From a virus: 48,857 nt of DNA. Positions within the stretch are counted from its first letter, which is position 1, and every line of letters begins with the position of its first letter. The DNA is taken from the UHGV virus genome UHGV-0138835; one strand, written 5' to 3'. Of the stretch, positions 2,833 to 25,571 are shown piece after piece. Below the pieces are notes generated by a model. That model worked only from the letters and a program-made list of their open reading frames with translations, did not search any database and was not told the DNA's origin. Position numbers and translations under genes: made by a program.

Positions 2833-5800
2833 ATGATTTACACAACTGGAACAATTGCCATCAACGGCAATGCTGTTACAGGCACGGGAACAAACTTTTC
2901 CGCGCCGCTTTCTCTCATTCGTGTAGGCTGCACGCTCATTGCAATCGGCAATCCGGTGCAGATCTTTACCATCACAGAAATTAAAAGCGGTACTGAACTG
3001 TCAGTGACGCCAGCAGCTAACCCTGCAATCCCTGCGGGAACAAAATTTAGTATTCTGCTATCTGACTCAATCTCAGTTGATGGTCTTGCTCAGGACGTAG
3101 CTGAAACCCTGCGTTACTACCAGGGCAAGGAAACAGAGATCGCCGCCGCTGTCGAGTGGTGGGAAGATTTTGGCGGAGAAGGTCAGTTGGATCAGCTTCT
3201 TACCAACATTCGCGCAGAAACAGCCAAATCAACCGCCAATGCTCAAAAAACAGAAACTGACAAAAACGCAGCAGAAGCGTCAAAAACAGCGGCTGCAAAA
3301 TCCGCCACGGCAGCGAAAACATCAGAAACCAACGCTAAGGCAAGTGAGACAGCAGCAAAGACAAGCGAAACCAACGCCAAAACGTCAGAGAACAGGGCGC
3401 AAGAATATCTAAATCAAATGGGAAGGCTTACCAGTCCAATGGTTCAATGTGATTGGCCCGTTACAACTGGTACGACTGACGCTTACGTTAAGATAGCTAA
3501 AGTTACCAACCCAGGTAGCAGCTCCTGCCACATGACACTAATGATCACTAATGCCGGTAACTACGGGACAAGTTACGGAAACATTGATTTTGTCGAGATC
3601 TCCGCTCGCGGTTTTCCCGATGAACTGAACGCCGATAATGTATCTAAATACTTGAGTATCCGCCGCTTAGGTTCACCAAATCTGGCAACTGATAATCAGA
3701 TGCGTTATGGGCTTGTTAAGGGCGATAACTTTTTTGAGGTCTGGTGTCGTCAGCGAGCATTTACCGGAAGCGCAAAGGTCGCTGTACTGGCGCAGACTAA
3801 TCAAAACACGGAATTATACATTCCCGAAGGATTTGTTAAACAAGACAATGCACCATCAGGATTTATTGAAAGCCCGGCAGCAAGGATTTACGACCAGGTA
3901 AACAAACCCAGCAAGGCGGATTTGGGCCTTTCTAACGCTATGCTTATAGGCGCTTTTGGTCTTGGCGGTACTGGAATAGGGTTGACTGGTTACATGACTG
4001 ATCAGGAACTACTACAAGAGCTAAGGGCTAAAGGTGGGTGTTTCTGGAGATCAGGAAAACCAACAGGTAGCACGGCGACCATTTATAGCCACGGTTCTGG
4101 TATATTCTCGCGGTGCGCCGATACGTGGTCAGCGATCAATATCGACTACTCAACCGCGAAGGTTAAGGTCTATGCCGGTAACGACAATGGACTTAACAAT
4201 AACACTTTTGCCGTTAATGAGCTATACGGAACTAAAAACAAGCCGTCGAAATCAGATGTTGGACTTGGCAACGTAACGAACGATGCGCAGGTGAAAAAAA
4301 TCGGCGATGTTATGTCTGGTGACCTGGCGATCAAAAAAGGGACACCGTCATTCTTTCTGCGGTCAGACAGTGGAACCGCCCATGTATGGTTCCAAAATGC
4401 GGATCAGACGGAACGCGGCGTTATTTTTGCGCCTACAAATTCTGAGACGCTTGGTGAAGTTCACATCAGGGCTAAAAACGCAAAAGGTGAAACAAACGGT
4501 GATCTTATTGTTCGCCACGACGGGGTGGTTGAGGTTCAGAATCTCACAGCGGCTAAAAAAGCCAAAAGCGTAACCGCAGAATTTGCAAACACAAGCACTA
4601 GCTCCGATGATACCACGGTAAATATCAAAGGATCACAGCATACGCCTTTGGTTTTAACGCGCAACAACACAATTAAAAACTTATCCATTGGGTTTAAGGT
4701 TGATGATGTTGATCAAAAATACCTGGGTATAGCTGGCGACGGTGATTTGTATTTTGGTAGTTATTCTGACCACACAAAAAACAGCAAAGTGATCACACAA
4801 GCAATACTCGATAGCGGGGTAACGGTAGGCGGTAAAACAACCTTTTCTGACCTTGCCACATTCAGTGCTGGTATATATGGGGCCATAGAACCGGAAATAA
4901 TTAACAGCAAGACTGTAGATCTTAACAACCTTGTCATTAAGTCCTCTGATAAAGGTTCAGTTAAGTATTATCAATGCACATCTTCCGGGGCTGGTAACTC
5001 CATTACCAATAAGCCTGACGGCGTAGGCGGTAACTTTTTGCTACGTGTAGAATCTATTCGTAAGGTTACGGATTCAGATTATACAAACTTGCAAACCCTG
5101 GTTGGCACAGACACGAAACAAATATACGTTCGCTATTGTGAAAATGGCAATTGGTCCGCATGGAGTCAGGTTGTTGTTTCAGGAAGGAATCAGGATGTAA
5201 ACGTAAGGTCGTTAACCACTGGTACCCCTGTAAAATCTGGTGGCGGGCAAATTGATGTACTTGGGAGTACGTCAGATTATAGCGCGATGAATTGTACTGT
5301 GCGTGGTGTTGATAGCACTGGAACCAATTCGGCGTGGTCGGTAGGTACATCAGAAAGCACAGGAAAAATGTTGTACCTGAAAAACCACAGAAGCAGCGCT
5401 CAAGTGCTGTTAAATGGCGATGACGGCGCGGTGCAACTACTAAGCGGTACCGTCAACAGTGCTACAGCACAGGCGCTAACCATCAACAAAGATGAGGTTA
5501 ACTCAACTGCCGATTTAGTAATTAGAAAACAAACAGGGACTGGCAGTCGTTTTGCTTTACAGAACGCAGGTAATGCAGAACTACCGTTTTCTGTCAGTGT
5601 GTGGGGTTCCAGTACTCGACAAAACGTTTTTGAGGTTGCAACGTCTGCTGCGTATCTGTTTTATGCGCAAAGAACGCCAGCAGGCCAGTTGTTTGATGTA
5701 AATGGCGCTATTAATTGCACAACGCTGAATCAGTCATCAGACCGCGACCTTAAAGACGATATTCTCGTTATCAGCGACGCGACGAAAGCAATCCGTAAAA

Positions 5801-6150
5801 TGAACGGATACACCTACACGCTCAGGGAAAACGGGATGCCTTATGCTGGCGTTATTGCACAGGAAGTAATGGAGGCGATACCAGAAGCTGTGGGATCGTT
5901 TACTCATTACAGTGAAGAGTTGCAGGGACCAACGGTTGACGGCAACGAGCTACGCGAAGAAACGCGTTATCTCAATGTTGACTACGCCGCAGTAACTGGC
6001 TTACTTGTCCAGGTTGCACGCGAAACGGATAACCGCGTCACCGAACTGGAAGAGGAAAATGCCAGCTTACGCGCTAACATTGCTGTAATGGATGAGCGTA
6101 TCGCAAAACTTGAAGCGCTTGTCAGTAAGTTGACCGGAAGCGAAGAATAA
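2833..6150 (+). CDS. tail fiber protein with C-terminal intramolecular chaperone (peptidase S74-like) auto-processing domain
   Basis: 1105 aa; the C-terminal ~130 aa (DLKDDILVISDATKAIRKMNGYTYTL...YLNVDYAAVTGLLVQV...EEENASLRANIAVMDERIAKLEALV) matches the recalled endosialidase/T5 L-shaped-fiber chaperone domain; SD GGAG 8 nt upstream. Confidence 0.8.
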   Translation: MIYTTGTIAINGNAVTGTGTNFSAPLSLIRVGCTLIAIGNPVQIFTITEIKSGTELSVTPAANPAIPAGTKFSILLSDSISVDGLAQDVAETLRYYQGKETEIAAAVEWWEDFGGEGQLDQLLTNIRAETAKSTANAQKTETDKNAAEASKTAAAKSATAAKTSETNAKASETAAKTSETNAKTSENRAQEYLNQMGRLTSPMVQCDWPVTTGTTDAYVKIAKVTNPGSSSCHMTLMITNAGNYGTSYGNIDFVEISARGFPDELNADNVSKYLSIRRLGSPNLATDNQMRYGLVKGDNFFEVWCRQRAFTGSAKVAVLAQTNQNTELYIPEGFVKQDNAPSGFIESPAARIYDQVNKPSKADLGLSNAMLIGAFGLGGTGIGLTGYMTDQELLQELRAKGGCFWRSGKPTGSTATIYSHGSGIFSRCADTWSAINIDYSTAKVKVYAGNDNGLNNNTFAVNELYGTKNKPSKSDVGLGNVTNDAQVKKIGDVMSGDLAIKKGTPSFFLRSDSGTAHVWFQNADQTERGVIFAPTNSETLGEVHIRAKNAKGETNGDLIVRHDGVVEVQNLTAAKKAKSVTAEFANTSTSSDDTTVNIKGSQHTPLVLTRNNTIKNLSIGFKVDDVDQKYLGIAGDGDLYFGSYSDHTKNSKVITQAILDSGVTVGGKTTFSDLATFSAGIYGAIEPEIINSKTVDLNNLVIKSSDKGSVKYYQCTSSGAGNSITNKPDGVGGNFLLRVESIRKVTDSDYTNLQTLVGTDTKQIYVRYCENGNWSAWSQVVVSGRNQDVNVRSLTTGTPVKSGGGQIDVLGSTSDYSAMNCTVRGVDSTGTNSAWSVGTSESTGKMLYLKNHRSSAQVLLNGDDGAVQLLSGTVNSATAQALTINKDEVNSTADLVIRKQTGTGSRFALQNAGNAELPFSVSVWGSSTRQNVFEVATSAAYLFYAQRTPAGQLFDVNGAINCTTLNQSSDRDLKDDILVISDATKAIRKMNGYTYTLRENGMPYAGVIAQEVMEAIPEAVGSFTHYSEELQGPTVDGNELREETRYLNVDYAAVTGLLVQVARETDNRVTELEEENASLRANIAVMDERIAKLEALVSKLTGSEE

Positions 6151-6179
6151 TGGGTGATGTGCGAAGAACATCGCCGCGC

Positions 6180-6208
6180 GAAACGAGGCTAACGCCTCGT
6201 TTCTTTTT
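6180..6208 (+). terminator. rho-independent terminator after tail-fiber gene
   Basis: gaaacgaggc-taac-gcctcgtttc hairpin followed by TTTTT. Confidence 0.65.
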
Positions 6209-6229
6209 GTGTACCAAATAGTGACCAAA
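6208..6229 (+). repeat. 22-bp perfect direct repeat, copy 1 (tgtgtaccaaatagtgaccaaa); candidate integrase arm-type site / attP-region repeat
   Basis: Exact 22-mer recurs at 6439-6460, flanking a ~210-bp AT-rich tract just upstream of int. Confidence 0.5.
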
Positions 6230-6438
6230 ATGATAAATCAAAAACAAAAACATAACATAACACATTGAATACAAATGAATTTTTCATTAAGTTATCCATT
6301 CAAAAGATAAGTAGGTAGCGCCATTTCTATCATTTCATATCGTGTCACATCGTCACCGTTTCACGTTGATTTCAAAAGAAATATTTATTCTATCGTGTCA
6401 TATCGCTCCCCATCGTGTTACTATCCATGCGTAAAATG

Positions 6439-8691: not shown

Positions 8692-9122
8692 TATTGCCCC
8701 CAGCGTTTTATAAATTCCTCGTTTAACTTCGTATCGCCAGACCACTGAACACCATGTTCAGCGCCGAACGAGTAGATCAGTTCGATTAATTCGCTAAATT
8801 CTGCTTTACCCATCCGGCTGGTTGACGTTCCCAGCACAACAAATCCTGATTTATCAAGATTAGGGACGACGCCATATTTTTTAAGCCCGGCAGTAAATAC
8901 CGCTTTCCAGTCTTCAGGTGACAGTTTTTTGCCGTACCAATTAACCTGATCGCTAATGTCGGTTAACAGCGCCCATAAAAGGCTATTTTGACTAAGCGAG
9001 CGGGTTTTCTCCTTGATGGTAATAATCAGCGGGCTTTTGCTATCAGGCTGGATTTCACTTATCTGCCTGATAGCGTTTTCTTTTACTGCGTCGTTTACTA
9101 TTTCAAATCTTATTTGCCTCAT
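8691..9122 (-). CDS. ninB: NinB recombination protein (lambda NinB/Orf family)
   Basis: Strong similarity to recalled lambda NinB (…RSLDQN..LWA.L.D.S.QV.W.G…VPNL…GFVV.G.STSRM…FSELIELI..FG…GV.WS). Confidence 0.85.
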   Translation of the reverse strand: MRQIRFEIVNDAVKENAIRQISEIQPDSKSPLIITIKEKTRSLSQNSLLWALLTDISDQVNWYGKKLSPEDWKAVFTAGLKKYGVVPNLDKSGFVVLGTSTSRMGKAEFSELIELIYSFGAEHGVQWSGDTKLNEEFIKRWGQ

Positions 9123-9837
9123 GGTTAGATAACGCCTCGTTTATTCTATTTGATGCAATTTCGAAATATTTTTCATCCTTTTCTATGCCGATAAAACGCC
9201 GATTAGTATTAATGCACGCAACGCCAGTAGTCCCGCTTCCCATGCAGTTATCAAGAACTAAATCACATTCGTTGGTATATGTTTTAATTAAATATTCCAT
9301 AAGCGCTACAGGCTTCTGTGTTGGGTGCAGCTTCACCCTATCTCGCGTAAACTCTAGTACCGTAACTGGATAGCGTTCGCCGCCACTCACCGTAGTTACA
9401 ATACCCGATGGATTGTAGTTAGATGTTTCCCCTCCTTTTTTACATTTATACGGCTTAAATCCCTCCCTCATTTGAGGGTTGTAAGTTGGCGGCTTATCAT
9501 AGAACACCAACACATTTTCATGATCCTTTAGCGGAGCGCGTTTAGCGTTCAGAAACCCTGTTCCAGCCTCTTTGCGCCAAATCCACTCATATCGAAGCAT
9601 ACCAAGATTGGACGCGCCTAAAACCTTGTCAAACGGCGTCTGGGCAGTCAGCACAATCGCCCCACAGCTTATGCGCTTGTATTCATCCCATAGAGACGGC
9701 AAATCAATAACGCTATCCCATTTGTTTCGCGTAGTCCCATACGGCAAATCACACAAAATCAAATTAATACTACAGTCTGGAATAGACTTCATAACCTCCA
9801 GGCAATCGCCTAACAATAATGCAATACCTTTACTCAT
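9103..9837 (-). CDS. DNA methyltransferase, beta-class N6-adenine/N4-cytosine (orphan)
   Basis: N-terminal motif IV DLPY (DPPY-like) and C-terminal motif I LDNCMGSGTTGVAC. Confidence 0.8.
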   Translation of the reverse strand: MSKGIALLLGDCLEVMKSIPDCSINLILCDLPYGTTRNKWDSVIDLPSLWDEYKRISCGAIVLTAQTPFDKVLGASNLGMLRYEWIWRKEAGTGFLNAKRAPLKDHENVLVFYDKPPTYNPQMREGFKPYKCKKGGETSNYNPSGIVTTVSGGERYPVTVLEFTRDRVKLHPTQKPVALMEYLIKTYTNECDLVLDNCMGSGTTGVACINTNRRFIGIEKDEKYFEIASNRINEALSNHEANKI

Positions 9838-18618: not shown

Positions 18619-18900
18619 GTGATGGGTTGTTATTTAAAAGCACCGCCACCGCCGCGAACAAAAGAGCAAGTATTGAAAGAAGCCCGTGATCAAATTGATC
18701 GCGGGTTTTTTATTGCTGGTAGTTCGGCTGAACGGATGGCGAAAAGATTTAGTGACCTGTACGCAAAACAAATATGGTTCGACAACTGGCAGGCAAGTTT
18801 TTACCCACCGCAAAGAAAACCGGATATGCACTGGCCTGAATATGTCGATCCACGCATGCGCAAATATCGCGGGCGTATGGGCCAGGTTATTAACGATTAA
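18619..18900 (+). CDS. hypothetical protein (93 aa)
   Basis: ORF in tightly packed + strand operon. Confidence 0.35.
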   Translation: MMGCYLKAPPPPRTKEQVLKEARDQIDRGFFIAGSSAERMAKRFSDLYAKQIWFDNWQASFYPPQRKPDMHWPEYVDPRMRKYRGRMGQVIND

Positions 18901-21200: not shown

Positions 21201-21395
21201 ATGAAAAAGGTTGGCGGTTATACGTTGCCTGATAACGCTAAATTGGCGGGAATTGGTTTTAGCGGCTGTTATTACTACAACAATGTAGGCGATATTTATT
21301 GCGTGCGTTTTGTCGATGGTGTACAGCATTTTCGCAGACTACCAGACATTGAATTGAGTAAACTTATCCGTGAGGTGTCATTACATGCGGTTTAA
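21201..21395 (+). CDS. hypothetical protein (64 aa)
   Basis: ORF in operon. Confidence 0.3.
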   Translation: MKKVGGYTLPDNAKLAGIGFSGCYYYNNVGDIYCVRFVDGVQHFRRLPDIELSKLIREVSLHAV

Positions 21396-21588
21396 ACATT
21401 ACAGAGAATGGATGATTCCAGAATCAGCAACAAAGGCAGCGCCCGGAATATTTTCGGGCGTTTATTTTTATATGGAAGGTAAATGGTATTTCGGCAGCAG
21501 GCCGGATCACTATTATCAAGAAGTGTGCAAATCTCACACATGGGACATTAATGAGCGCGTGCAAGGCGGTGTAATAGACGAGGTTTAA
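21370..21588 (+). CDS. hypothetical protein (72 aa)
   Basis: ORF in operon. Confidence 0.3.
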   Translation: MRCHYMRFKHYREWMIPESATKAAPGIFSGVYFYMEGKWYFGSRPDHYYQEVCKSHTWDINERVQGGVIDEV

Positions 21589-21589
21589 A

Positions 21590-21826
21590 ATGGTTAAGAG
21601 CTTTTTTAACTGGTTGGGGGCGTGGCTTTTGGCTACGCTTTTTGTTTTCCTGGCGGCCCTGACTGCTATCGGTGTTATCATGCTGGGGGCTATGTTTATT
21701 ACGTGGTCGCTGCCTGAATTTAACGACATTGGGAATATTCTTTTTGCAGCCCGCGCTTTATTGGCTGTTAGCGCATTCATTGGTTTTTGCTGGACTGTAG
21801 CGCCTGATTGGGGTGATGAATGGTGA
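21590..21826 (+). CDS. hypothetical membrane protein (78 aa, two hydrophobic helices)
   Basis: Hydrophobic composition. Confidence 0.35.
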   Translation: MVKSFFNWLGAWLLATLFVFLAALTAIGVIMLGAMFITWSLPEFNDIGNILFAARALLAVSAFIGFCWTVAPDWGDEW

Positions 21827-22064
21827 TCCTATGGCTTTGTTCAATATGTCAGAACTGCAATTTAATGCCGTAAAAGCTGCCGCCCGCGCTGCGCTTTCTG
21901 CCTGCAAAGCGGAGGTAGAAAGAAACGGCTACAGCGATAAAGCTACGCGGATGATATTAGAAAAGCATTATCGCAAGGTTGCCCCATTAATCAGTATTGA
22001 GCGCTTTGTGTGGTTGGTGGGGTATTTAAACAACCGTTGGGGGACGGAACAAGATTATTTCTAA
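21813..22064 (+). CDS. hypothetical protein (83 aa)
   Basis: ORF in operon. Confidence 0.3.
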   Translation: MMNGDPMALFNMSELQFNAVKAAARAALSACKAEVERNGYSDKATRMILEKHYRKVAPLISIERFVWLVGYLNNRWGTEQDYF

Positions 22065-22073
22065 GGGGGCGTA

Positions 22074-22613
22074 ATGAAAAATGATTTTGGAGGCAGCCAC
22101 ACTCCTAAGGAAATTAAAGATCTATGGCAGACGCCTAAACCAGTTTTCAGGGGAATGGATCGTGAATTTGAATTTGTCGCTGACGTTGCGGCAAACAAGG
22201 AAAATGCGCTAGTTCCTCGGTATATAACAGAAGAAATGGACACGCTGCATTATCCGTGGGGAGCGGTGGCAATGCCTGGTGAGTATGTCTGGATGAATCC
22301 GCCATATTCGAATCCGGGGCCATTCGTTGATAAAGCAGCGATTGAACACAGCCGAAATCACATAGGTTGCGTAATGTTATTGCCCGCTGACGTTTCTGTT
22401 AGCTGGTTTATGAACGGCATTGAGACGGCAAACGAATGCCGATTAATCACGCGCGGGCGGCTGGCGTTTATCAATGCTGCGACTGGTAAGCCAGTAAGCG
22501 GAAACAACAAAGGCAGTTTGTTTTTGATCTGGCATCCACGGTGCAGACATGAATGTATTTTTACACACATAACACGCAAAGAGCTATACGCAAGAGGTGC
22601 AGATAATGACTAG
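22074..22613 (+). CDS. phage Dam-like N6-adenine DNA methyltransferase (second orphan MTase)
   Basis: NPPY catalytic motif (WMNPPYSN) in a ~180-aa protein of the phage Dam family pattern. Confidence 0.7.
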   Translation: MKNDFGGSHTPKEIKDLWQTPKPVFRGMDREFEFVADVAANKENALVPRYITEEMDTLHYPWGAVAMPGEYVWMNPPYSNPGPFVDKAAIEHSRNHIGCVMLLPADVSVSWFMNGIETANECRLITRGRLAFINAATGKPVSGNNKGSLFLIWHPRCRHECIFTHITRKELYARGADND

Positions 22614-23103
22614 TGCGGCAGATTTATTGCGACTTGCAGAGGAAACAATTGAGCAAAGGGGGAAACAAAACGGCTACGACAGAAAAGAGGAAAAATCAGC
22701 GCCAAAAATAGCCACTATTTACAACGCTAAAAAGGGGGCGAATTTAACACCACTTGATGTATGGGATCTGTTGATTTGTCTCAAGGAGGCGCGATTAGAG
22801 GCAATTTTAGTTAATGGCGGGAATCCGGTTGATACACTGGTTGATTTAATTAGCTACAGCGCACTAAAAGCGGAGCAAATATTAAATGATCTGGAGAATG
22901 AACAAAATAAAAATCAGTTCACTGCCGCCAATATTAATGATGGAATAATAAATGACGCAGCAATAACAAGCTGTAAGGGATTGCCACCTTCAATGCTTAA
23001 CCCTCAATGCGGTTGTATTTCAACTCGGCTTGATTTGAGTTTTGACAGATCTGAAGCTATTCGCGATAAGAGGTATAACCCAAATGAAAAAGGTGACAAT
23101 TGA
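22597..23103 (+). CDS. conserved phage protein of unknown function (168 aa)
   Basis: ORF in operon; no confident family. Confidence 0.4.
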   Translation: MQIMTSAADLLRLAEETIEQRGKQNGYDRKEEKSAPKIATIYNAKKGANLTPLDVWDLLICLKEARLEAILVNGGNPVDTLVDLISYSALKAEQILNDLENEQNKNQFTAANINDGIINDAAITSCKGLPPSMLNPQCGCISTRLDLSFDRSEAIRDKRYNPNEKGDN

Positions 23104-23587
23104 CAGGTTACTGGCCTGCGTTTATGTCGCCGTTTTCGTAATCATCAACCTAATTGTTAACCATTGCGGCCCGTGGGTAATTCCGATCACCACGGTAGCC
23201 GCTGTGTGTGTCAATATGATGATCCGTGACTTCCTGTTATATGACGGCGGCCTGAAATGGTCGGCTACAACATGCGCCGCCGCTGGCGCAATCACGGTGC
23301 TGATAAATTACGATGCTGGAATGGTGGCGATTGCGTCATTCGTTGCGGTTGTTTCCGGTGCGCTTATTTCTGGCGGCGTTTACCGGGTTTTACCTGGTGA
23401 TTTCGATTCGAAACGATGGCCTGCAAATATAGCTTCAGCCATCGGTGATGCGTTGATTTTCCCTACGCTATCGTTCATGGCATTTATGCCTGAAATATCA
23501 GCTATGCAGTTCATCTCAAAAATGGCAGCGGTAACGGTGATCACTATCATCATGCGCCGCTATTTCACGTTTGAGGGAAGAAAATGA
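23084..23587 (+). CDS. integral membrane protein (~167 aa, multiple TM helices); very tentatively VUT/YhhQ-like
   Basis: Strongly hydrophobic; weak resemblance to recalled YhhQ segment (AS..G[DN]…F…F.AF); start at ATG 23084. Confidence 0.4.
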   Translation: MKKVTIDRLLACVYVAVFVIINLIVNHCGPWVIPITTVAAVCVNMMIRDFLLYDGGLKWSATTCAAAGAITVLINYDAGMVAIASFVAVVSGALISGGVYRVLPGDFDSKRWPANIASAIGDALIFPTLSFMAFMPEISAMQFISKMAAVTVITIIMRRYFTFEGRK

Positions 23588-24111
23588 ATTGGGAAGATTA
23601 TTTTATATACAATCCAGACACGGGTAAATTGTACTGGAAATGTAGAAATGATATAGATGAATCAAGGCGTAAACAATGGAATGCGTGCAACGCTGGTCAT
23701 GAAGTTGGATATATTGGCGGTAGCGGTGGTTATCTTAACACAGCGCTTACCGTAGGCGGGAAGCGTTATAATTTAAAAGTTCACAGAATATGTTATGAGA
23801 TGTACTATGGCCCAATACCTGAAGGTAAGGAGGTTGATCATATAAATCACATTAAAACAGACAATCGAGCCGTCAATCTTGAATTAAAAGACCATAAAGA
23901 TAATATGCGCAATATGTCTTTGATGGTAAACAATACCAGTGGATGCGCTGGTATCCATAAAAATAAACATGGTAAATGGGTTGTTAGAATAGGCGGAGGC
24001 AAAAGAGGCGAGAGGGTTTATATAGGGTGTTTTTCTGATATTAATGACGCAATAAAAGCACGACGCGACGCTGAAAAAGAGTATGGCTATCATGAAAACC
24101 ACGGCAAATAG
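23584..24111 (+). CDS. HNH homing endonuclease with AP2-like DNA-binding domain
   Basis: HNH core HRICYEMYYGPIPEGKEVDHINHIKTDNRAVNLE and AP2-like GIHKNKHGKWVVRIGG…YIGCFSDINDAIKARRDAE. Confidence 0.8.
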   Translation: MNWEDYFIYNPDTGKLYWKCRNDIDESRRKQWNACNAGHEVGYIGGSGGYLNTALTVGGKRYNLKVHRICYEMYYGPIPEGKEVDHINHIKTDNRAVNLELKDHKDNMRNMSLMVNNTSGCAGIHKNKHGKWVVRIGGGKRGERVYIGCFSDINDAIKARRDAEKEYGYHENHGK

Positions 24112-24370
24112 AACAACCCGCCAGCCGCCGCGCGGCTTTGCCAGTGCTGTATTCCTTGCTAACGACCGGGCCATCACGCGTACTACGCTCAACCGCGTTT
24201 TACCGGACTAAAGTTTACAAAATGGCGTCATTGCGTGATGTGGATCACATAATGGCGATTTTCACCTTGTTCTGACGTATCCATTTTGTATACTTCAAAC
24301 AAGAAAAATGCTCTTTAAAAATCCGGTAGCGCTGAAATGCGTAGAAATCACCTGAAAAGGAGAGAGCATT

Positions 24371-24547
24371 ATGCCTTTTGATAATTACCAATGGCATGAC
24401 GACTATGAACGAGAGAGCGTCATGCGTGCAATGTGCAATGTATGCAGCACGAAGAAAGGAGGCTGTAACGAGTGCAACGAATGCTTAGAACATTGGCTAA
24501 GGGCCGGACACGCCGAAAGGCTGAACGAAACAGAGAATCAAAAATAA
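24371..24547 (+). CDS. small Cys-rich (zinc-ribbon-like) protein, 58 aa
   Basis: Strong SD AAAGGAGAG 7 nt upstream; CNVCSTKKGGCNECNEC; below ORF-track cutoff. Confidence 0.35.
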   Translation: MPFDNYQWHDDYERESVMRAMCNVCSTKKGGCNECNECLEHWLRAGHAERLNETENQK

Positions 24548-24561
24548 TCGGGGTGGTTTTT

Positions 24562-25167
24562 ATGCAAAACCCTAAAAAACCCATAAGACGCCGTTGCAAA
24601 TGCTGCGGCGTTTTTTTTGAACCTAAATATCACAATCAAACGTGGTGCAGCGATGAATGTCTGGAAGAACTGAAGTTTGATCAGCTATGCCGCGAACGTG
24701 AAAAGGCTATGAAGGCTATGGAGCGGAAGAAACGCCGTGACAGCCAGCGTGAGGAACGCAACAGGAAGCGGAAACAGTTAAATCCGCGCAGCTACTGGAT
24801 TAAACAGGCGCAGGCCGTATTTAATGCCTATATCCGCGAACGTGACGCGCTATTGCCGTGCATATCCTGCGGGACTTATTACGGTGAGCAATGTTCATGG
24901 GATGCGGGACATTACAGGACGGTAGCCGCTGCCGGACACCTTCGCTTTAACGAGGATAATTGCCACAAACAATGCAGGCACTGCAACCAGACATTAGACG
25001 GCAACATCGGAGGGTATCGCCCAGCACTGATTCGAAAAATTGGCCTCGCCAGGGTGGTGGCGCTGGAGAACAACAACGAAACTCACAAATGGACGATAGA
25101 AGAATGTAAGGAAATCATAAAAGTCTATCAGGCGAAATTAGACGCCTTAAGGAGAAAGGCAGCATGA
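24562..25167 (+). CDS. ninG: NinG (Rap) recombination protein
   Basis: Strong match to recalled lambda NinG (RRRCK…C…PRSYWIKQAQ…N.FIRERD..LPCISCGT….WDAGHYRT.AAA..LRFNE.N.HKQC..CNQ…GN…YR..LI.RIG……E.N…H.WTIEECK.I). Confidence 0.85.
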   Translation: MQNPKKPIRRRCKCCGVFFEPKYHNQTWCSDECLEELKFDQLCREREKAMKAMERKKRRDSQREERNRKRKQLNPRSYWIKQAQAVFNAYIRERDALLPCISCGTYYGEQCSWDAGHYRTVAAAGHLRFNEDNCHKQCRHCNQTLDGNIGGYRPALIRKIGLARVVALENNNETHKWTIEECKEIIKVYQAKLDALRRKAA

Positions 25168-25571
25168 ATGAATATTCTTTTAGCCTGCCTTACCCGCCAT
25201 CGAATAATCGCTATTACCGACATTCACGCGGTTTTCACTATATCAGCAAAGTGGGGAAGGAATACAGGGAACAAGTAAGAGACATCATCGAGCTATTAAA
25301 TTTAAACATCAACCTATCTTGCCGACTGGCAATTACCATTCATGCCGCGCCGCCGGATAACCGAACCAGAGATCTGGATAATATCCCTAAATGCCTTTTT
25401 GATAGTCTTACTTATGCAGAGTTCTGGAAGGATGACGGACAAATCGACGCAATAAAAATTGTTCGCTGCCGGAAGGTAAAAGGCGGACGCTTGTTTATTA
25501 AGGTACGCGAACGCGGCGACCTGTTACCGGATATTGGTGAATACGAAACTAATATGTGGGGTGAGCAATGA
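25164..25571 (+). CDS. rusA: RusA Holliday-junction resolvase
   Basis: Match to recalled RusA (YSF.LPYPPSNNRYYRH.RG…RDLDN..K…D.LT.A.FW.DD.Q…….KGGRL). Confidence 0.85.
   Translation: MNEYSFSLPYPPSNNRYYRHSRGFHYISKVGKEYREQVRDIIELLNLNINLSCRLAITIHAAPPDNRTRDLDNIPKCLFDSLTYAEFWKDDGQIDAIKIVRCRKVKGGRLFIKVRERGDLLPDIGEYETNMWGEQ

Follow-up and report, generated by a model that had tools for sequence, protein, structure and literature searches.

A predicted VUT/YhhQ-type transporter without its usual DpdA partner in the early gene string of an mEp021-like coliphage genome

Genomic setting of the gene string

The viral genome UHGV-0138835 (48,857 nucleotides, all of which was analysed and is referred to here as the window) carries four genes on the plus strand between positions 22074 and 24111. 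These encode a Dam-type DNA methyltransferase, a protein with a DUF6378 domain, a membrane protein that is a probable member of the VUT/YhhQ transporter superfamily and an HNH endonuclease. Consecutive start and stop codons overlap by 8, 20 and 4 nucleotides. The four genes belong to a six-gene plus-strand string (21590–24111) with the order small membrane protein, Ipe, Dam, DUF6378, transporter, HNH. The genes of the string are translationally coupled, and the interval forms the distal part of this delayed-early string, which lies between two terminators. The upstream end of the string is marked by an intrinsic-terminator-like hairpin of 11 pairs followed by a T-run (21438–21462, plus strand), at the position of TERM_3 (t3) in coliphage mEp021. 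On the other side, RNA folding identified a hairpin followed by a U-run (24223–24264, plus strand) that is the counterpart of the mEp021 terminator TERM_4 (t4). In mEp021, nutR2 is reported just downstream of the slot that follows the transporter gene (PMC11893012). Promoter-like sites within the gene string showed no excess over expectation.

The original prediction for this interval, made from the sequence alone, described it as anti-restriction cargo made up of two orphan DNA methyltransferases and an HNH endonuclease. The open reading frames (ORFs) that it named exist at or near the positions it gave, and their family matches are far beyond chance. Positions 21500–24600 exhibit approximately 91% nucleotide identity to the coliphages mEp021, mEp010, mEp013, mEp044, mEp515, mEp554 and MagusPhagus, and prophage matches to the same region were found in 35 of 5426 complete Escherichia coli genomes. 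The window is accordingly assigned to the published mEpimmI group as a temperate, mEp021-like coliphage. This group consists of Nus-dependent, non-lambdoid gut coliphages (PMC11893012), and the remaining gene content of the window is as expected for a member. There are tail fibre genes and an integrase, DnaB and NinB are encoded in a leftward replication operon, a CI-like repressor, Erf, SSB and Abc2 are also present, and NinG, RusA and Q precede the structural genes. The order Ipe-Dam-DUF6378-transporter is present in all 44 mEpimmI-like viral contigs, and Dam-DUF6378-transporter is present in all seven mEpimmI isolates. These genes are a conserved core of the phage group.

The VUT/YhhQ-type membrane protein

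The third gene of the interval (23084–23587, plus strand) encodes a six-helix membrane protein of 167 amino acids. It belongs to phrog_4899, which is labelled "unknown function", and is of the VUT/YhhQ type (COG1738, PF02592 superfamily). The likely start codon is the ATG at 23084, which is preceded by AAGAGGT, rather than the TTG at 23042. When compared alone with the Pfam profile Vut_1, the protein scores 12.2 bits (E 0.24, gathering threshold 27.2) over profile positions 6–149 of 152, and a word-indexed search with it returned only close E. coli prophage relatives. An exhaustive profile search seeded with six close relatives recovered 261 cluster representatives at E ≤ 1e-3, and a Vut_1 match was obtained for 81 of the 87 family members that were aligned (best E 2.5e-15). 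The phrog_4899 members of Pectobacterium phage PEAT2 and Acinetobacter phage AB3P2 are above the Pfam cut-off, with 38–39 bits against Vut_1, and some phage homologues already carry the label "VUT family protein". Among the invariant or nearly invariant positions of the family, N22, G29, R48, D49, S85, N115, D122, F126 and K146 are retained in the window protein, and the nearly invariant S123 (81/87 members) is replaced by Ala. The AlphaFold model contains six helices with a predicted local distance difference test (pLDDT) score of 92. Its top three matches in BFVD, a collection of predicted viral structures, have a probability of 1.0 and template-modelling (TM) scores of 0.55–0.58, and one of them is a "Putative vitamin uptake transporter". 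Together these results support the membrane protein as a divergent, short member of the VUT/YhhQ superfamily of queuosine-precursor transporters. A YhhQ-like precursor transporter had been offered earlier as a weak guess, to be checked by hidden Markov model (HMM) classification; the profile searches place the protein in the VUT/YhhQ superfamily, and the guess was right at that level.

Comparison of the transporter gene with that of mEp021 gives 33 synonymous codon changes and a single non-synonymous one, the strongest constraint in the cluster. This ratio indicates that the gene is not decaying and is under strong purifying selection. An Asp-to-Asn change at position 44 was considered as a signature of DpdA-less transporters and was discarded, since the position is D in 57, N in 14 and other residues in 16 members across the family. 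A group of longer relatives of approximately 300 amino acids (P0150, P0158, P0159, P0162, P0168, P0169 and similar) carries a C-terminal extension after a second hydrophobic segment, and a DUF5020 match (E 1.5e-22) is found in two of the 87 aligned members.

Pairing with DpdA-like genes in other phages

A tblastn search of sequenced phages identified transporter homologues with 30–36% identity in Drexlerviridae, Pectobacterium phage PEAT2, Acinetobacter phage AB3P2, a siphovirus from bat faeces and others. A 10-sequence transporter alignment served as the query for the locus search across viral contigs. In total 46 more distant phage loci (28–37% identical) were examined, comprising eight isolate phages outside the mEp group, 36 viral contigs and two short metagenome contigs. 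A DpdA-like gene abuts the transporter gene in 45 of these: all eight isolates, 35 of the 36 distant IMG/VR viral contigs and both short metagenome contigs. The sole unpaired IMG/VR locus stops at the contig edge.

In PEAT2 and AB3P2 the gene beside the transporter is annotated "queuine tRNA-ribosyltransferase". The neighbours of the transporter in phages Opt-719, LHE71, Phc, Tbat1_6, RCIP0319 and ECO111 5-P exhibit homology to this gene product (E 1e-39 to 1e-151). The family of these neighbours corresponds to phrog_887 (E 3e-86), the PHROG of phage DpdA-type transglycosylases. In the six phages just named, the DpdA-like gene beside the short VUT transporter is unannotated or labelled "hypothetical"; these genes lie at 5561–6304 (locus L010), 4477–5304 (L014), 4476–5297 (L015), 4507–5247 (L016), 4474–5301 (L018) and approximately 4465–5240 (L017). 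The six phages may carry a 7-deazaguanine DNA modification that has gone unrecognised and that relies on an imported precursor. Phage-encoded VUT copies are known from 7-deazaguanine DNA-modification clusters (PMC8310023, PMC6884629), phage "preQ0 transporters" have been reported in Seuratvirus and EC151 (PMC8310023), and it was suggested earlier that phages encoding DpdA only might take up 7-deazaguanine precursors (PMC6884629). The pairing of transporter and DpdA-like genes fits both that suggestion and the reports of phage preQ0 transporters.

No DpdA was detected in the window, either by tblastn (best E 0.76) or with an HMM built from seven DpdA-like proteins and run against all six-frame ORFs (best E 1.9), and none was found in 50 kb of the relative MagusPhagus. 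FolE, QueD, QueE and QueC were likewise not found among the 37 window ORFs scanned, a set that omits some small ORFs, or in the annotations of the relatives. The window and the whole mEpimmI group are predicted to lack DpdA, and the transporter to be an orphan. The nearest relatives of the window transporter (44–52% identical) also lack DpdA. A relative with a 52% identical transporter keeps the order Ipe-Dam-DUF6378-transporter-Dcm-like-NinG, and in relatives with 44–47% identical transporters a beta-class methylase gene lies approximately 0.8 kb away and there is no DpdA. The branch of the transporter family nearest to the window goes with methylases rather than with DpdA.

The Dam-type and beta-class methyltransferases

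The first gene of the interval (22074–22613, plus strand) encodes a phage Dam-type N6-adenine DNA methyltransferase of 179 amino acids, as predicted from the outset. The product matches Pfam PF05869 with 177 bits (E 3.4e-52, cut-off 28.1) and the NCBIfam equivalog TIGR01712, "phage N-6-adenine-methyltransferase", with 142.8 bits (cut-off 97.05). The catalytic (D/N)PPY motif is present as VWMNPPYS at residues 71–78, and PADLOC labels the protein "orphan methyltransferase" (oMTase, E 1.8e-25). The gene was found in every relative examined. Nothing useful was found in the literature on the specificity of PF05869.

The second methyltransferase is encoded on the minus strand at 9103–9837, where its gene neighbours NinB within the leftward replication operon, and is predicted to be a beta-class N6-adenine/N4-cytosine DNA methyltransferase. 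It matches PF01555 (N6_N4_Mtase) with 98.9 bits (E 5e-28, cut-off 26.7) and is scored by PADLOC as a type II methylase (MTase_II, E 1.7e-80); its solved relatives are DpnA, CcrM and MboIIA. The class and the motif order stand as first described, with the catalytic CDLPYG at residues 29–34 and the S-adenosylmethionine (AdoMet) motif DNCMGSGTTG near residue 205, but the catalytic motif reads D-L-P-Y and not DPPY. The gene is present in two of the seven isolates (mEp515 and mEp021) and absent from the five others, and counts as accessory within the group. The two methyltransferases had been presented as one unit of cargo; this does not agree with the distribution of Dam as a core gene (7/7 isolates, 44/44 contigs) and of the beta-class gene as an accessory one (2/7).

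No restriction endonuclease gene lies beside either methyltransferase gene: the neighbours of Dam are Ipe and DUF6378, and those of the beta-class gene are NinB and small ORFs. Given these neighbours, and with the HNH protein scored as a homing endonuclease, the adjacent cognate nuclease that defines a type II restriction-modification system is missing. The two enzymes are thus of different families and both orphan, as had been proposed. Avoidance of GATC and CCWGG sites was considered and discarded, since both are over-represented in the whole window relative to dinucleotide-preserving shuffles: 217 GATC sites were observed against 149±11, and 99 CCWGG sites against 55±7.

The DUF6378 protein

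The gene between Dam and the transporter (22606–23103, plus strand) encodes a protein of 165 amino acids with a match to PF19905 (31.7 bits, cut-off 27.1). Its likely start is the ATG at 22606, which follows the Shine-Dalgarno-like AAGAGGT, and not the GTG at 22597; the start codons chosen for this gene and for the transporter gene give gene lengths that match the annotations of mEp021 and of the prophages. The protein consists of a conserved four-helix N-terminal domain of approximately 95 amino acids and a mosaic C-terminal tail of approximately 65 amino acids, with conserved charged residues at R18, D25, E29, K60, R63, D76 and D80. Among close relatives the C-terminal 65 or so residues (encoded by 22900–23103) occur in at least three unrelated versions, and the N-terminal domain is more than 80% identical.

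The DUF6378 domain is present in 226 phage records, as a small early protein or as a domain of a larger protein in the examples that were looked at. No transporter gene was found near it in the three records viewed (Dhillonvirus EK99P-1, Salmonella phage 9NA and Pantoea phage AH01). Sequence and profile searches gave no match in the Protein Data Bank (PDB), and the homologue search returned only close relatives among the top 120 matches listed. The AlphaFold model, built on a shallow alignment of 12 close sequences, has a pLDDT of 44 and is unusable. The PHROG label "phosphofructokinase" for this protein found no support.

The HNH endonuclease and the displaced Dcm-like methyltransferase

The last gene of the string (23584–24111, plus strand) encodes a free-standing HNH_3 homing-type endonuclease of approximately 175 amino acids, as assigned by both Pfam and PADLOC, and its start codon overlaps the stop codon of the transporter gene (ATGA). 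The protein matches Pfam HNH_3 (PF13392) with 64 bits (E 9e-18, cut-off 24.8), PADLOC labels it a homing endonuclease (HEase, E 1.7e-8), and the only solved relative is I-HmuI (1u3e, E 1.4e-3). It had been named an HNH-AP2 endonuclease. The first part of this name is borne out, but no AP2 domain was matched by Pfam at E values up to 10; the C-terminal pattern SG..GI...GKW..RI...G.F....A resembles AP2 by eye.

At the same position mEp021 encodes mEp021_33, a protein of 252 amino acids annotated as a cytosine methyltransferase, which exhibits C5-methylase-like motifs by eye and matches phrog_757, "DNA methyltransferase" (E 8e-87). The idea that mEp021_33 might be a mis-annotated DpdA, given that its size and position match those of DpdA in other phages, was rejected because the protein has no similarity to DpdA-like proteins and matches phrog_757. 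In a three-way DNA alignment, the window and mEp021 remain collinear as far as the ATGA that they share, diverge completely after it and rejoin approximately 85 nucleotides before the stop codon of the Dcm-like gene. What remains of the displaced Dcm-like C5 methyltransferase gene is its 3' end at 24128–24211 on the plus strand, which encodes ...PRGFASAVFLAND...RVLPD, ends at the same stop position as mEp021_33 and was matched by tblastn with mEp021_33 residues 234–252. The replacement by the HNH gene begins exactly at the start codon of the Dcm-like gene and spares approximately 85 nucleotides of its 3' end.

Among 44 related viral contigs, the slot after the transporter gene is occupied by a Dcm-like gene in 42, by the HNH gene in one and by nothing in one. 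Among the matches listed, the HNH allele is also found in four E. coli prophages (STEC306-308 and E21845/O/A) with 98–100% of the query covered. The closest HNH homologues (74–75% amino acid identity) are encoded by T1-like Drexlerviridae, immediately 5' of an intact Dcm-like gene; the Dcm-like protein of phage PeterMerian has 49% identity to mEp021_33 (E 5e-75). Relatives also carry other, less similar HNH genes at scattered positions near NinG. The sporadic occupation of the slot and the Dcm-adjacent homologues together form the pattern of a free-standing homing endonuclease with a niche beside Dcm-like genes. The HNH protein would be a selfish homing endonuclease that makes no contribution to protection, and it is predicted to cleave the HNH-free allele and to spread by gene conversion. 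Its inclusion in an anti-restriction package does not hold for a mobile homing-type nuclease that occupies the slot in one of 44 contigs and has displaced a methylase. Since the displaced gene encoded a third, Dcm-like methylase, the window phage has fewer modification genes than its relatives, not more.

Other forms of the slot were seen among the relatives, with an empty slot in one contig (L052, approximately 5494–5505) and truncated Dcm-like genes in three (L053, L054 and L057, 5492–6073). A 78-amino-acid fusion of the transporter N-terminus to a Dcm-like tail was also found (P0139). The junction after the transporter gene appears to be prone to recombination.

Interpretation of the cluster

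Overall the cluster is ordinary, a normal early-gene region with a mosaic make-up in a phage group that is already known. The best explanation of it as a whole, and a probable one, combines an early gene string with orphan methyltransferases, a selfish HNH endonuclease and an orphan transporter. The string would be read during lytic growth from an early rightward promoter with N-type antitermination, which is the published mode for mEp021. Replicating phage DNA would be modified by Dam and by the beta-class methylase encoded elsewhere, so that progeny might enter the next host pre-methylated or might remain fully methylated despite fast replication. An anti-restriction role, the usual reading of orphan phage methylases, is plausible for the two enzymes, and protection against more than one restriction system may reasonably be proposed from the known activities of their families. 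For the transporter, continued import of a 7-deazaguanine-type base (preQ0 or preQ1) is most likely, with the usual DpdA-like partner missing.

Several points weigh against this explanation. Taken alone, the window transporter is under the Pfam Vut_1 threshold, and a fold search of the PDB with its model returned as best matches the S-components of energy-coupling factor (ECF) transporters at a non-significant E of approximately 1; there is no YhhQ structure in the PDB. The substrate is proposed solely from the family and from the gene neighbourhood in other phages, and since the nearest relatives (44–52% identical) are all without DpdA and near methylases, this sub-branch may have changed its substrate. 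The searches above gave no functional clue for the DUF6378 protein. For the methylases, both activity and specificity in the window phage are predictions. The excess of GATC and CCWGG shows that these sites are not avoided and does not tell which enzyme methylates them. GATC methylation by the window Dam, if it is made, would already be supplied by a dam+ host, which weakens a simple anti-restriction reading.

The alternative closest to the original prediction is that the methylases, DUF6378 protein, membrane protein and HNH endonuclease form a coordinated anti-restriction cargo directed against several restriction systems. Both methylases are real and orphan, the relatives have a third, Dcm-like methylase in the same string and the region is rich in DNA-modification genes; the lack of GATC and CCWGG avoidance is also in keeping with such a cargo. 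It is nonetheless unlikely, because the HNH gene occurs sporadically, in place of a methylase gene that it destroyed, the beta-class methylase is an accessory gene in another operon, neither a known anti-restriction role nor a PADLOC match supports including the DUF6378 protein or the transporter, and the host already has Dam and Dcm.

A second alternative places the transporter in a DNA or RNA base-modification pathway. It would import 7-deazaguanine or another base, and an enzyme of the host, or one of the phage that has gone unrecognised (such as the DUF6378 protein), would insert it. The near-universal pairing with DpdA elsewhere, the strong purifying selection on the transporter, the conservation of the Dam-DUF6378-transporter order down to 52% transporter identity and the conserved charged residues of DUF6378 all point this way. 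The searches found no DpdA/TGT-like gene in the window or MagusPhagus, and no que genes were seen among the ORFs scanned or in annotated relatives. DUF6378 is a domain of approximately 95 amino acids, and of its 226 phage records the three viewed do not have a transporter nearby. Such a pathway is improbable on balance. There is a similarly slim chance for the broader proposal that the mEpimmI importer without DpdA feeds an unrecognised nucleic-acid modification route through a new enzyme such as DUF6378, through a host enzyme, or through a changed substrate that serves the neighbouring methylases.

The transporter could also serve translation, by supplying the host Tgt with more preQ0, preQ1 or queuine and thereby keeping tRNAs with GUN anticodons queuosine-modified during infection or in the gut. 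The YhhQ family reportedly acts in the salvage of queuosine precursors (Zallot 2017, as cited by other papers), which is the one role of the family known from experiment; the host has Tgt and the phage group is gut-associated. E. coli, however, already synthesises queuosine de novo and possesses a YhhQ, and the gene sits in an early lytic string with no promoter signal of its own. A queuosine-linked codon bias was looked for in the phage and discarded, since the NAU codon share is unremarkable and not raised (Asn 0.45, Asp 0.59, His 0.47, Tyr 0.51). A role in translation is accordingly doubtful. Least credible of all is a small restriction-modification or defence pair, in which the HNH nuclease would attack unmodified competitor or host DNA and a methylase would protect the phage: HNH genes of this lineage do lie directly beside Dcm-like methylase genes in T1-like phages, but the Dcm-like partner is destroyed in the window, most relatives have methylases and no HNH gene, PADLOC scores a homing endonuclease and not a restriction enzyme, and the nearest solved structure is I-HmuI.

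With the early string, the orphan methylases, the selfish nuclease and the orphan transporter taken as the preferred explanation, the anti-restriction interpretation is supported in part. In its first form the finding is routine: phages commonly carry orphan methylases and homing endonucleases, and the phage group is already published. The claim that remains is a modest one, in that a single feature of the cluster is unexplained, namely a conserved VUT/YhhQ-type transporter without its usual DpdA partner. The short VUT/YhhQ-type family phrog_4899 abuts a DpdA-like gene in almost all of the distant loci examined, and many GenBank records label both genes "hypothetical". This pairing lends support to the proposal that phages with DpdA alone take up their 7-deazaguanine precursor (PMC6884629) and draws attention to T1-like phages in which modified DNA may have gone unrecognised. 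The mEpimmI group is the natural exception, a transporter without DpdA, and provides a tractable K-12 system for asking what other roles the transporter may have. The replacement of the Dcm-like gene by the HNH gene neatly illustrates how a selfish nuclease erodes the modification repertoire of its own phage.

Other genes of the early region

The string opens with a small hydrophobic protein of 78 amino acids (21590–21826, plus strand) that belongs to phrog_14059. It is 58% identical to its mEp021 counterpart at the amino acid level, with 33 non-synonymous and 14 synonymous codon changes, and evolves much faster than the neighbouring genes of the string. The PGAP label "cell division protein FtsK" on relatives of this protein looks spurious. 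The next gene (21831–22064, plus strand), directly upstream of Dam, encodes a homologue of Ipe of 77 amino acids (phrog_303) with 97.4% amino acid identity to that of mEp021. Ipe of mEp021 is the "inducer of pleiotropic effects" (PMC11893012), and its over-expression is reported to cause haemolysis via HlyE vesicles as well as cell death. DUF7274 was considered as a variant of the slot after the transporter and was discarded, since it corresponds to a small upstream ORF at 21370–21588.

Downstream of Erf and SSB, a gene at 18619–18900 encodes an Abc2-type anti-RecBCD counter-defence protein (phrog_656, E 3e-29). The junction resolvases NinG/Rap and RusA are encoded side by side at 24562–25167 and 25164–25571. 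Several relatives carry a further, different HNH gene between or after NinG and RusA (6633–7109 in contig L002; approximately 7160–8110 in L042, L050, L056 and L058), and in a more distant relative of the group Q is closely followed by a Lar-type restriction-alleviation gene (PF14354; L100, 9188–9415).

Comparison with known systems

The closest known system is the region of genes 28–33 of mEp021 (MH706966), in which the gene order is also small membrane protein, Ipe, Dam, a hypothetical protein (DUF6378) and a "putative membrane protein". The NinF/NinG/RusA/Q region follows in both, the same terminators flank the string and the nucleotide identity is approximately 91%. The two differ in the slot after the transporter gene, which holds the HNH gene and the Dcm remnant in the window and the gene for the Dcm-like "cytosine methyltransferase" (gp33, phrog_757) in mEp021. 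Neither a VUT/YhhQ-like identity of the membrane protein nor queuosine, queuine or deazaguanine is mentioned in the mEpimmI paper (PMC11893012).

The HNH endonuclease resembles the I-HmuI type in its HNH_3 catalytic domain, in being free-standing and in being present or absent between otherwise collinear genomes. It differs from the Drexlerviridae HNH endonucleases (PeterMerian/Bas05) in that the adjacent Dcm-like gene is intact there, whereas all but the last 85 or so nucleotides are replaced in the window. The window Dam is similar to the Dams of T1, VT2-Sa (933W) and HP1 in its length of approximately 180 amino acids, its NPPY motif and its status as an orphan, phage-encoded enzyme above both curated thresholds; the characterised Dam enzymes of the T1, VT2 and HP1 type methylate GATC. 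The window transporter shares with E. coli YhhQ (QPTR, COG1738; 221 amino acids) the character of a six-helix membrane protein of the Vut_1 superfamily and is shorter at 167 amino acids. It also differs from the VUT-DpdA pairs, of which PEAT2 gp18-gp19 is an example, since it has neither DpdA nor a preQ0-synthesis gene beside it and lies instead between methylase genes.

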